Assembly (NCBI GenBank): GCA_010015805.1
Contig: ML978122.1
Location: 2,824,453 to 2,888,452 of the forward strand
Length of the DNA: 64,000 bases
Origin: Rhizodiscina lignyota
Lineage: Eukaryota
Reading direction: 5' to 3'
Below the pieces are notes generated by a model, which saw only the letters and a list, made by a program, of their open reading frames with translations, searched no databases and was not told where the DNA came from. Shown piece after piece: positions 34,425 through 38,538 of the stretch. Positions within the stretch are counted from its first letter, which is position 1. Each line of letters starts with the position of its first letter. Both the position numbers and the translations under genes were made by a program.

Positions 34425-35485
34425 TTACTGGTTAATGTGCTCGAATAGTCCCTCCAAGCGTCCATCAGCAGTAATCAGAATTTCAGCATCTTCCTTCAAG
34501 CCTCCCTTGCCATCCATTTTCAGGGCCTCATCCAGCATCTCAACACACTTTTCCATATCCTCCATCAACTTCTTAACGCCCTCATTCCCTTCAGTCCCTT
34601 CATCCAGGACCTTCCCCCAACCCAAACACAACCCCTTCAGCACCTCTCCTTTCCACCCCTCGATCCGTGGCCACCCCATCCTCACAACATCCCCTAACGC
34701 CCCCACCGCCGCCCTCATGAGCTCCACATGCGCCAGCGCAAACGGATCCGCCAGCACATTACCCAGCAGCGGCACGGTCTCCTTCAAATGCTTCACGCTA
34801 TCGATCCCCTCTTCTCGAACAAGCACACCGAGCTGCGTGATCAACACCTCTGCAACAGCGGGGTGCTCGCCTGCAAACGACATCCCATGCAGAACGCCGT
34901 GACGAATTAGTTTGTCGATTGCTTTGACTTTCGCGTCCCAGATTTCCGGGGCGTCGTTTCGAGCCTCTCCTGGGAACCGGGTTCGCGTAAGCGTTACGAG
35001 CGCCGGGTATGCCGAATTTAGAATTGTGACGGATTGTTCGACAGGCGTTAATGTGGGGAGGTACGAAAGAGCAGGCGTTAGCGCCTCTTCAAAAACGCCT
35101 GCTAACCCCGTGCGCGCGAGCAGTGCCGGGGGCGTCGCGCTAAGTAGTAGTGTGAGAAAATCGCAGCCGCGGGCTTTGAAGCGCGTTTCGTGGTCGTCGA
35201 TCATTGCGAGGATTGGTGGGATGAGAAGAGGCCAGTTTGTTTCTACGGTGGTTGGTGTAAGGGAATTCAGGATCCAGCGCAGGATGTGGAGGACGTAGGG
35301 GTCGTGTTTCCAGGGGGTTTGGGTGGCGGCTTCGGAGGGGAGGGTTGGGTTTTGGGGAAGGGGGATATCGCGTTTTCGCGCTGATGGGGTAACGGAGGGG
35401 TGGGATGCTTGGGAGAAGAGTGGACGGATTGCTCGGCGGAGGAAGTGGGTGATGAGAGAGGAGAGGAGGTCAGACTTTGCGGAGT
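34425..35485 (-). CDS. TTI2: Tti2 (TTT co-chaperone subunit) domain exon with no start codon of its own; predicted third exon of the CCA gene
   Basis: Frame open from 35485 to 34425: IRPLFSQ, TPWK, ILRWIL, VETNWPLLIPPILAMIDD, LLARTGLAGVFEEALTPALSYLPTLTP, DSVKHLK, GWPRI, EVLKGL. This fits the fungal Tti2 pattern as I recall it. Confidence 0.8.
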
Positions 35486-35497
35486 CTTGAGTAAGCC

Positions 35498-37435
35498 TTA
35501 GTGTTGAGTTTGGTATATGGTGAAGGTGGACTTACCTTCGGTTTTGGATTTGCTGCTTGGGGCGTCCTTGCCGCCTTTGTCGATGCTTCGTCGTTTCTGT
35601 GCCGATGCGGAAGCCTGGTTGTTCTCGAGGTGTAATTTGACAGCCTCGATGGCCTCAGATGGATCAGTAGCGTCAGGATGACGGAGCTGCCATGCCACCA
35701 CGACATCAAGAGCATCTTTCATCCATGGTCCTGGCGGAGTGGACAAAGCTGTCGAGAGCGCCTTTCCATCCATCAGAGGTTTGATCGCGTAAGCGTTGAG
35801 TAATTCGAGTGCTTCGAGGTGTTTCAGAAAGTTGGTGTACGACAATTCGATAGCTGCAAAGCGTTAGAATCGCTACAAGAATCTCTTTCAAGGCAACAAA
35901 GACTTACATTCTGTCGAATCGGGATTCTGGAAAATCTCATAAAGCAGGCTAAACACAGCCTGCTCCCTCCACGAGGCTCCCCACCGACGAATCGCCATAC
36001 CAAGAGTGTCGCGAGCAGTCGCATCATCTCCCTCTTTACGTTTATGTGGGAATTTTGACTGAGATATGAATTTGTCTTTCAACTCCCGGATCTCTTCGTA
36101 GTTGTGCAAAGATGACTCGACGATGTTGGCAACCTTGTTCGGTGCTTTGAACCCTTCTCGAGCCACTGCCACTGCTAGAGGTACGGGCGTCCTATTTTTC
36201 TTTGGCGGAGCTGGAAGAGGAGCATCTACCCAAGGGATGAGGGCAGCAGAAATCCAAGCTTGATATTGGCCTTCGAAACTAGAGAGAAGTATTGGCCTCA
36301 AGTGGCGGTCGGAAGAGATGTTCTTGGGAGAGATCAGCATCTCAAGTGCCATATATACCGCCTTCCAGTTCTTCGTCTCAGGTACGTAATCTGGCTTGTT
36401 GGTCGGATCTGTGAAGACAGTGTTGTAGAGGTTGAGCTTGTTGATGTATGTCAACGCTCCAGCAGGATCTCTGCCTTTCAGCATTTTCTCGAGCTCTATG
36501 CCAACACGCTCCCTGCTGATCTTTATGCGCAATGCTTCTCTGATGTCGTCGTTATTCATCGCTCCCTGGGCAGCCGAATCTATTTCGAAGTCCAGCCTTG
36601 TTGCAAACCGAATCAGGCGGAGAACCCGTAGAGGATCATCCTTGAATGTCTGATACGGCTCAAGAGGAGTTCGGATGATCTTAGCCTCCATATCATCGAA
36701 GCCACGTTCGGTGAAGTCTTCGATCTGGCTAGTATTGATGTTGTAGAACATGGCATTGACGGTGGCATCTCTGCGCACTGCATCCTCTTCTGGCGTGCCG
36801 AACTCCATTTGAGGATTACGGCTGTCTTCCGTATACGTCTCCTTGCGCAGATTCACAAGATCAATATCCAGGCCGAGGATTTTGGTAGTGACTGTCTCGA
36901 GATGCTTTGACTTTTCTGGATTGGCCTCGATTTTGTAGAGACCACCGCCCATCTTTCGCTTGCCATCTGATTTGCTACTTGACTCGGTGCTCGCCAGACC
37001 ATACTTTTCAGCGTTCCCAGGGATCTCGAGATATTCTTTCATCTTCAGGCCGAATTGGTAGCCGGTCATCTTGTTGATGGCAACATCAATGTCATGACTT
37101 TGGGTATCCAGAAGCTTGTCGCGCACCCAGCCACCAGTGAAACGAAGGACCAGGTTCTCATTTTGAAGTTCTGATGGCGGCTGTGCTTCACTCTCAGGGA
37201 CTGAGGGCGAATCCTCGATATACTCTGCCGTGTCAAGTAGCAAATGTCTTAATGTCTGCTCAACATCATTGAGCTCGATTATTTTCGAGCGATAGCGGTG
37301 CCGCATGGCCATGTTGGTGAGTGACTGTTTGATGAAAGGTGGGCGTGAAGAAGGAAAAGGAAGAGGATGTGAGAAGAGAGTTTTGAGGGGTATTAAGGTT
37401 TGCACACGCGCCAGACGCCCGCCCAGTACGTTCAT
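35498..37435 (-). CDS. CCA1: CCA tRNA nucleotidyltransferase (class II); intron 35854..35907; ends at 35498 if intron 35486..35535 is retained, otherwise continues into Tti2
   Basis: GGWVRDKLL...HDIDVAI (DxD), EANPEKSKHLET, DLVNLRKE, DAVRRDATVNA, FKDDPLRVLRLIRFA, KISRERVGIE, KPLMDGK...PGPWMKDALD. Confidence 0.96.
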
Positions 37436-38538
37436 GAGAGGAAAGGAAGGTTCGAGAGATCTCAATGCATATTTGACGAAGTAGAGTGCCGGCACTTGAT
37501 TGCCAACGACGGAAGAACTAAAGGAACCGTGGTGTTTGTCGCGGCAGTCGTTATAGTGTCAAGGCCGCGCTAACCCGTTGTGGTCTGTGCTGTGTTATGT
37601 AGTGGGAGCCGCCAGCACTCACGGCTTTGCAATATTTCTTGAGTTAAAGGTTATAATTAAAATAGTTTTTCCTAGTCACTGCCTTCGGGCATCATGGTCA
37701 AGTTCAACTTGGTCCATTATTTAAGTAAGATTTTATCCTGAAAAGAACAGATACGGTTAACCTTCAACAGTGCGTTTGAGCTGTCAGTACGCCTCTCCCC
37801 TCTGCTAACCCATAGGCGCTCAGTGACGGACAGCACCTTCTCGTAGTACTGGGTGTGAGTAATCTTAAAGATGAAACCAAGACTGTCCAATATTTTTTTT
37901 GTCACCTGTAGGCCTCAAGTTCAAAACCTGCCTCCGGCGTTGTATTTTTTTTCCTCTTTTAATTTTATGCTAGCCTGGAATGGTTTGACATTAGGCGAAC
38001 TTTATTTGCCAAATTCCATATTTGGGAAAGTTAAGACTATTTCAGGCTAGCTTTCAAACGGCGGTGGATTTAAGATGCCAGGAGACCACTTTACTTCCCA
38101 CTTCACTTTCTATCTTACTGAAGAAGGGATATGAATTTTATTTTACAGAGTACCTACGGGGGAATAGATGTATATACTAAACTCGTTTATCTAGATACAA
38201 ATTACACCTTGACTCGTCTTCTATACGCAGATCCACAGTTCAAATAGAAGAAGACGTTCCTTAACATTGGCAAATTATGGGATGAAAGGTGTGGCTTTTC
38301 GTGGCGGCTTAATACCGTTCGCCTGACATTATAACTCCATCCACGGTCCGCCTTGTCATCACTTGGAGACAACCACCGACACTTTAATGCGACCACATAT
38401 TGATCGCATGCCGGCCTCTTCACTCCTTTGACACCGTGACGATCGCAAACCTCTCCCGAAGCTCGTCTCACGATCAATGAGCCTAAACATCGAAATCGCA
38501 CCCCAAGAGCCCACCAAGGGAGTTCGCAGGAGACACTC

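Follow-up and report, generated by a model that had tools for sequence, protein, structure and literature searches.

Whether a CCA-adding tRNA nucleotidyltransferase and the chaperone subunit Tti2 can be products of one and the same gene, and whether a 50-nucleotide (nt) intron between them decides which product is made, are the questions raised by a locus of the fungus Rhizodiscina lignyota. We have examined this locus in a 64-kb stretch of contig ML978122.1 (hereafter, the window), in which every feature of the CCA-Tti2 gene lies on the minus strand. An earlier note on this stretch had proposed that both proteins share one gene and that the intron acts as the switch that sets the supply of Tti2. 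Our analysis supports the first proposal and argues against the second. With considerable confidence, we favour one three-exon gene encoding a bifunctional CCA-Tti2 fusion that would have arisen once, by deletion, the intron being a later addition in the lineage of Rhizodiscina.

The open frame of the CCA exon begins at 37558 and contains in-frame ATGs at 37435 and 37312. Starting from the second of them, which is the annotated one, exon 1 (35908..37312) encodes the head and neck of the CCA enzyme together with the greater part of its body, and the upstream ATG adds an optional N-terminal extension of 41 codons (37313..37435). Intron 1 (35854..35907; 54 nt, phase 1, with the splice signals GTAAGT...CTAAC...CAG) separates this exon from exon 2 (35536..35853), that encodes the helices forming the CCA enzyme's C-terminal tail (…PGPWMKDALDVV…AIEAVK) followed by a linker, whose basic stretch (...QKRRSIDKGGKDAPSSKSKTE) at the 3′ end of the exon finishes with the residues ...KSKTE. 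Intron 2 (35486..35535; 50 nt, phase 1, GTAAGT...CTAAG...AAG) lies inside this linker, and exon 3 (34425..35485) encodes the C-terminal helical-repeat domain of Tti2 in 353 codons, the first of which is split by intron 2, before the TAA stop at 34427-34425. Removal of intron 2 joins G and AC into an in-frame Asp codon that continues in the sole long downstream frame. The three exons joined by script gave 968 codons from ATG 37435 with a single terminal stop, or a protein of 927 amino acids (aa) if translation starts at ATG 37312, while by our own count the alternative AG acceptors nearby, that would remove 39 or 61 nt, did not restore the Tti2 frame. If intron 2 is retained, translation runs for 12 further codons (...KSKTEGKSTFTIYQTQH) to a stop at 35500-35498, yielding a protein of 627 aa. 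The Tti2 frame contains a TAA at 35534-35532, within the donor, and then no ATG for 109 codons; the first ATG (35202..35204) lies 94 codons into exon 3, and since it is located 3′ of the invariant W58 and K59, a product initiated there would be devoid of these conserved residues.

A public gene model from R. lignyota (P0001, 927 aa, named “tRNA nucleotidyltransferase”) has a Tti2 part 100% identical to exon 3, uses the same intron 2 splice (...SKTEDSAKSD...) and begins at the second ATG, 37312. The elements on which the earlier note had built, that is, the donor at 35535, the CTAAG sequence, the acceptor at 35486, the Asp junction leading to 968 aa, the Tti2 part deprived of its own start and the complete CCA enzyme ending at 35498 upon retention, were all found in place, and it is also true that in this genome the fusion requires the splice. 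Gene structure, both domains and splice frame are confirmed.

The Pfam scan that the earlier note had suggested placed both domains above their cut-offs, at levels that chance would not produce. PolyA_pol (PF01743) matched exon 1 with an E-value of 3.3e-23 and 82.8 bits (cut-off 23) and Tti2 (PF10521) matched exon 3 with an E-value of 1.3e-73 and 248.5 bits (cut-off 25.2), covering positions 35-278 of the 279 in the profile, so that one gene carries both a CCA enzyme and Tti2, as the note had read it; P0001 carries the two families as well. Exon 2 showed a weak tRNA_NucTran2_2 match (E 0.026), under the cut-off. P0001 holds the sequences GGWVRD...DID and EDAVRRD, instances of GGxVRD...DxD and EDxxRRD, which we take to be the catalytic and the nucleotide-selecting motifs, respectively, of class II CCA-adding enzymes; residues G60-D65, D74, D76, E176, D177 and R180-D182 were invariant among 53 fused proteins. 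The AlphaFold2 model of P0001 superimposed on the Arabidopsis CCA enzyme 9kma with a Z-score of 27.7 and a root-mean-square deviation of 4.0 over 480 aligned residues (model residues 4-549, 32% identity), and in a profile match to solved cca2/cca1 chains the tail covered residues 415-474 of chain 9ns4_A, stopping 13 residues short of the end of this chain of 487 residues. On the basis of these models, the CCA part is predicted to be a complete head-neck-body-tail fold. It has the same head, motifs, fold and tail as eukaryotic class II CCA enzymes such as S. cerevisiae Cca1, Arabidopsis 9kma and the fission-yeast-type 9ns2/9ns4; the fusion differs from the solved or described CCA enzymes that we found in its additional ~350 C-terminal Tti2 residues, seen in none of them.

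The 41-residue N-terminal extension (MNVLGGRLARVQTLIPLKTLF...) abounds in Arg, Lys and Leu and contains no acidic residues, and in the close relative P0121 a long basic extension likewise precedes the equivalent Met. The extension looks like a mitochondrial presequence, and the longer form may be targeted to the organelle. Yeast Cca1 supplies several compartments by means of alternative start codons. A review has the yeast enzyme serving nucleus, cytoplasm and mitochondria (PMC10275265); the likeness here takes the form of an upstream ATG and a presequence-like extension. A mitochondrial isoform starting at 37435 would bring the Tti2 domain into the organelle unless the domain is removed.

We then considered the identity of the C-terminal half. 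Exon 3 keeps the motifs PWK, IPP..DD and RTGL and, together with IRPLF and SVKHL, shares them with stand-alone Tti2 proteins of Pezizomycotina (Agyrium, Pyricularia, Podospora, Orbilia and Xylogone; 529-555 aa), to which it is 31-39% identical over its whole length. Identity of the Tti2 part across the class amounts to 36-44%. A profile search of solved structures paired profile positions 143-220 with residues 216-291 of human TTI2 (7f4u_C, 9wjy_B; E 1.1e-5), and human TTI2 (7f4u, 7ole, 9wjy) and yeast Tti2 belong to the same family by hidden Markov model (HMM) and display the same helical-repeat fold. The fused part differs from them in not being a separate polypeptide and in its missing N-terminal third, the region that binds TTI1 in human (PMC8278493). 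The stand-alone Pezizomycotina proteins, in turn, are ~185 residues longer at the N-terminus and carry no CCA domain.

Having both domains in one reading frame could be a peculiarity of one genome, or of its annotation. Among the long Tti2 homologues of exon 3, 22 of 23 carried both PF01743 and PF10521, the organisms named being Dothideomycetes from many orders, such as Zasmidium, Dothistroma, Venturia, Lophiotrema, Aureobasidium and Phyllosticta, as well as the Arthoniomycete Alyxoria varia. A search with the CCA part recovered 1359 proteins at E ≤1e-60, and about 104 of the best 120 contained the two domains, by our own count; the 16 remaining, without PF10521, comprised nine gene calls and seven NCBI models, one of the latter being a 552-aa model of Ascochyta lentis. 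Within these best 120, proteins with both domains were found in Alternaria, Bipolaris, Pyrenophora, Curvularia, Zymoseptoria and Pseudocercospora, and also in Hortaea, Aureobasidium, Macrophomina, Phyllosticta, Elsinoe and Trypetheliales. A Chrysothrix protein, fused too, represents a second Arthoniomycete. Conversely, none of the 15 named stand-alone Tti2 clusters came from Dothideomycetes or Arthoniomycetes. They belong to Lecanoromycetes, Sordariomycetes, Leotiomycetes, Orbiliomycetes, Eurotiomycetes, Coniocybomycetes, Pezizomycetes and one genus of uncertain class; six of the lineages were looked up, and the remaining clusters presumably fall into the classes given. The earlier note had described the two genes as separate in yeasts and animals; that they are separate outside this fungal group was borne out by stand-alone Tti2 proteins of 529-555 aa in Lecanoromycetes, Sordariomycetes, Leotiomycetes and Orbiliomycetes. 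On the sequences compared, this is a clade-wide fusion of otherwise separate genes, that occupies one frame in many species and separate genes in the outgroups; it is real and conserved across Dothideomycetes and Arthoniomycetes, and its function we infer.

The names given in databases are mostly uninformative (“tRNA nucleotidyltransferase”, “poly A polymerase C-terminal region-like”), a single Elsinoe entry being called “Tti2-like protein”. Owing to such names and to split annotations, a search for TTI2 in these genomes seems to come back empty. In Ascochyta lentis one locus has received two models, a 552-aa CCA protein that ends at the joint (P0149, ...ESDN) and a 905-aa fusion (P0154, ...ESDSELPQ...), and this double annotation shows how pipelines hide the fusion.

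To examine the joint at the nucleotide level, we used 29 metagenome loci, retrieved with a 6-sequence alignment, a 15-sequence alignment being too diverse. Both sides of the joint were present in 25 of them: three (L013, L026 and L028) are truncated where their contigs end, and L029 was not counted as an orthologue, because it shows 33% identity over 68 residues and no CCA upstream. In 24 of the 25 loci (22 distinct sequences) a single frame runs from PGPWMK to HFLxLTIRPLF with neither stop nor intron, and 9 of the 15 shorter metagenome gene calls examined likewise connect the CCA tail (...PGPWMKDALDVVMAWQLRNP...AIEEVK) to the first Tti2 helix (GELxSxLxxHFLxLTIRPLF) without interruption. Among named organisms, Cladosporium, several Teratosphaeriaceae, Lophium, Bipolaris and Viridothelium come nearest to the loci that lack the intron, and on this ground the loci resemble members of both subclasses and of several orders, following the placements that we assume for these genera. 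Intron 1 behaves differently from intron 2, for its site is occupied by a gap of 54-88 nt in 24 of 24 related loci holding both flanks. In L004, L005 and L010 intron 1 is open in frame and the open frame extends more than 640 codons upstream.

These alignments bear on the possibility that the fusion is a gene-model artefact, in which predictors have merged neighbouring CCA1 and TTI2 genes and Tti2 is made from a transcript of its own. Annotations cut at the joint (552 versus 905 aa in Ascochyta lentis), the seven NCBI models among the best 120 of 1359 that lack PF10521, and a Helicocarpus protein (P0269) that resembles a merger of two complete genes all fit such an explanation. Against it, 24 of the 25 loci are continuous across the joint, with no stop, spacer or start codon; in the window, the Tti2 frame has no ATG for 109 codons after the TAA; and the connection between the two domains can be as short as four residues, which is confidently modelled. 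We regard a prediction artefact as scarcely credible.

The distance between WMKxALD and IRPLF showed a median of 44 residues (range 34-87) in 136 proteins and is 75 residues here; a Met occurs within the linker in only 5 of the 136, and four residues is the shortest connection between CCA and Tti2. Taken with the absence of intron 2 from 24 of the 25 loci and its position in a lineage-specific expanded linker, these distances indicate that the linker probably expanded in the Rhizodiscina lineage and that intron 2 arose inside it, most likely as a recent gain.

What does this mean for the switch? The claim was that the 50-nt intron is regulated, retention giving the 627-aa CCA enzyme and splicing the fusion, and that in this way it sets the supply of Tti2 and, with it, the biogenesis of TOR and other kinases related to phosphatidylinositol 3-kinase (PIKKs). 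The intron does have usable signals and its removal or retention gives two complete products. Upon retention the frame closes after 12 more codons, by which point the CCA enzyme is complete, no Tti2 start exists before 35204, and the intron sits exactly within the linker; moreover, Tti2 would be of no evident use to a mitochondrial isoform initiated at ATG 37435, which would make a CCA-only product sensible. Yet the intron is missing from 24 of the 25 loci and from many continuous gene calls, and with the joint being an intronless single frame, the fusion protein would be the sole possible product in most of the clade. No switch is needed, since the clade lives with an obligatory fusion. Intron 2 is also an ordinary one, 50 nt with GTAAGT like intron 1, and an mRNA that retains it would extend ~1.1 kb past the stop and might be degraded. 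As a general mechanism the switch is unsupported, 24 of the 25 related loci compared do not keep the intron that it would need, and as an explanation for Rhizodiscina we consider it very unlikely. Of the mapping across relatives that the earlier note had called for, the fusion part came out positive, being common to Dothideomycetes and Arthoniomycetes, and the intron part negative. The note had overlooked that public protein sets already contain the fusion, and that its Tti2 part is truncated at the N-terminus.

This truncation became apparent when the Tti2 part was used in a HMMER search of cluster representatives, that gave 896 relatives at E ≤0.001, many of them 500-600 aa long with the alignment starting near residue 190. 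All eight stand-alone proteins scanned (529-555 aa) entered the Pfam profile at position 1-4, at residue 142-170 of the protein, and none had a CCA domain, whereas fused proteins entered it at position 35-37. We built an N-terminal Tti2 HMM of 184 positions from 56 stand-alone N-terminal regions. It matched 76 proteins of the collected set and only 1 of the 115 fused-type proteins (Helicocarpus P0269), that is, none of the 114 of Dothideomycete type; in the 64-kb window and the 29 loci there was no match (best E 0.28). Exon 3 is a Tti2 by the family HMM and is not a full-length Tti2. Judged by these profiles, the fused part lacks the ~185 N-terminal residues of stand-alone Pezizomycotina Tti2, and by extrapolation from the profile alignment it would start at about residue 165-170 of human TTI2. 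The N-terminus of an Exophiala Tti2 also appeared to align to the CCA tail; as Pfam and the comparison with solved chains identify this tail as a genuine CCA domain, we dismissed the match as an artefact of the alignment.

The missing region would be the one expected to be indispensable, considering the human TTI1 contact and the yeast phenotypes. According to Pal et al. (PMC8278493), human TTI2 1-193 co-purified TTI1, while TTI2 194-508 was largely insoluble and did not co-purify it. Hoffman et al. (PMC4889661) reported that yeast Tti2 was viable only with short C-terminal truncations and not with N-terminal ones, and that low Tti2 levels were enough for growth. It could be, then, that the fused domain is no longer the Tti2 of the cell and is a truncated copy with a new role, for example in helping the CCA enzyme to bind tRNA or partners, Tti2 function residing elsewhere, either in a diverged full-length gene or in a separate gene for the lost N-terminal part that works with the fused domain. 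The ~185 residues missing in 114 of 115 fused-type proteins, the start of the fused part at ~165-170 in comparison with the TTI1-binding construct 1-193 (PMC8278493) and the N-terminal truncations reported as inviable in yeast (PMC4889661) speak for this explanation. On the other side, the fused domain keeps the family motifs, 36-44% identity and a score of 248 bits, and this conservation is in keeping with a retained Tti2 function. In addition, homologue searches, which relied on shared words or on cluster representatives and were not exhaustive, named neither a second Tti2 homologue for R. lignyota nor a full-length stand-alone Tti2 for any Dothideomycete, and all 15 named stand-alone clusters came from outside the clade. 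A query of the ESM Atlas with the stand-alone Tti2 N-terminus, which returned only Tti2 clusters and generic HEAT families with scores ≤0.86, was of no help in locating a separate Dothideomycete gene for the N-terminal part. We hold a loss of Tti2 function from the fused domain to be unlikely, and a conserved bifunctional fusion remains the explanation that we prefer.

Structure models were consulted on how the two halves are held together in the fusion. The AlphaFold2 model of P0001 had a mean predicted local distance difference test (pLDDT) of 86.3 and a predicted template modelling score of 0.74. Residues 572-927 are all helical with high pLDDT, the linker 551-570 has a pLDDT of 49-58, and the first Tti2 helix starts at residue 572, just ahead of the splice point E574|D575. 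In the Zymoseptoria orthologue, that has a short connection, ten-residue blocks across the joint showed pLDDT values of 94, 80 and 94, and in that protein the two halves are probably rigidly held. Comparison of the Tti2 part with HEAT/ARM proteins (importins, CAND1) yielded Z-scores of 15-19, a level common for helical repeats. The HEAT-repeat proteins RanBP5 and CAND1 aligned to model residues 493-927, that is, from within the CCA tail, which gives a weak hint that the tail helices may continue the Tti2 solenoid. A two-chain interface prediction between CCA 1-547 and Tti2 575-927, run without alignments, scored 0.00 and counts neither for nor against a contact between them.

Taking the sequences and models together, we propose that the N-terminal ~550 residues form a complete class II CCA-adding tRNA nucleotidyltransferase and that the C-terminal ~350 residues represent the last two thirds of Tti2, which belongs, as a helical-repeat subunit, to the Tel2-Tti1-Tti2 (TTT) co-chaperone of PIKKs. 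The fusion would have had a single origin, no later than the common ancestor of Dothideomycetes and Arthoniomycetes, probably from tandem neighbours through a deletion that took away the stop codon of the CCA gene, the intervening spacer and roughly 185 codons from the start of TTI2. P0269, a 1236-aa protein of Helicocarpus griseus (Eurotiomycetes), contains a complete CCA enzyme and, behind it, a Tti2 that is complete as well (Pfam 1-279; N-terminal HMM E 8e-36). Like the fusion, it presents CCA and then Tti2 in one predicted protein, and it differs in that its Tti2 is complete. Most likely a predictor has merged two genes lying in tandem, and the model may perhaps depict how the locus looked before the fusion; its joining of both complete parts suggests that CCA and Tti2 genes lie next to each other outside the clade. 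In most species, a turn of 4-10 residues within one exon would link the last helix of the CCA part to the first one of Tti2, and this location of the joint would make the fusion obligatory. In the lineage of Rhizodiscina, the connection would have lengthened to ~35 residues and gained the 50-nt phase-1 intron, whose ordinary (constitutive) splicing would lead to the same conserved fusion, with the 927/968-aa protein as the main product and the two ATGs giving forms with and without the presequence-like extension. The fusion would add CCA to tRNAs and its Tti2 part would take part in PIKK maturation, the CCA tail perhaps replacing the lost repeats. Some CCA-only enzyme may be generated by intron retention, which is seen in many fungal genes; there is no sign that it serves for control. 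We infer that both activities have persisted, as well as the deletion, the constitutive splicing and any functional coupling of the two halves.

Several observations weigh against this proposal. As to the intron, the only sequencing run that contains the stretch (X1) is a genomic assembly, in which the stretch lies in one piece with no differences, and for this reason the splice is read from its signals, the restored frame and conservation; the acceptor AAG is unusual, CAG or TAG being commoner. As to the joint, L024 (1197 nt) has a frame break there and no first Tti2 helix, and may be a decayed copy or reflect another intron or an assembly error. As to the range of the fusion, P0158, a fused protein with a short linker from a metagenome-assembled genome, is labelled Sarea resinae (Sareomycetes), outside the clade, and points either to a wider range or to a wrong bin label. 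Three of the closest relatives, whose Tti2 part is 54-72% identical to exon 3, have CCA and Tti2 as separate proteins on equally long contigs in the Logan gene calls (P0089 with P0028, P0093 with P0026, and P0121 with P0033), and in P0024, P0025 and P0026 the initial Met stands immediately ahead of the first Tti2 helix. These split calls fit a break at the joint, caused by the same intron or by a true split, and a secondary split may have occurred in that lineage. As to function, a Tti2 without its N-terminus is problematic and needs an explanation in view of the yeast inviability reported in PMC4889661, and elsewhere in the genome there may be another TTI2, or the N-terminus may have a gene of its own.

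In L024:1-420, which is Aureobasidium-like, the CCA tail stops and the Tti2 frame resumes one frame over.

No paper describing a CCA-Tti2 fusion was found in the literature searched, subscription journals and supplements lying outside the search. The fusion is apparently undescribed, its architecture being visible in public protein sets. A precedent for a second C-terminal domain is offered by bacterial multifunctional Cca, that carries a C-terminal HD domain acting in tRNA end repair. The resemblance is limited to the arrangement, for the HD domain acts on the same substrate as the CCA enzyme. To our knowledge, Tti2 has no link to tRNA, and we know of none between CCA addition and the TTT/PIKK chaperone. 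The locus shows two essential and functionally unrelated housekeeping genes in one protein across one of the largest fungal classes, which includes the well-studied Zymoseptoria, Alternaria, Bipolaris, Pyrenophora, Aureobasidium and Hortaea. Gene fusions are classic hints of a functional link. The loss of the N-terminal third of Tti2 turns the assembly of TTT in these fungi into a testable question, and the junction intron, as a gain in an expanded linker, may provide a CCA-only option for the Rhizodiscina lineage, perhaps only there. A bolder idea is that in Dothideomycetes and Arthoniomycetes Tti2 exists only as an appendage of the CCA enzyme, whose tail replaces the repeats that hold Tti1, so that TTT contains a tRNA 3′-end enzyme. 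We would not expect this to prove right, while keeping it as a possibility; if true, the biogenesis of TOR, Mec1 and Tra1 would be tied to tRNA maturation and the Rhizodiscina intron would be a way to uncouple them.

Finally, among the stand-alone proteins, the lichen fungus Teloschistes chrysophthalmus (P0339, P0201, P0338) has two near-identical Tti2 genes with adjacent locus tags, together with a 1070-aa model that resembles their merger, which suggests a tandem duplication of TTI2 in this species.

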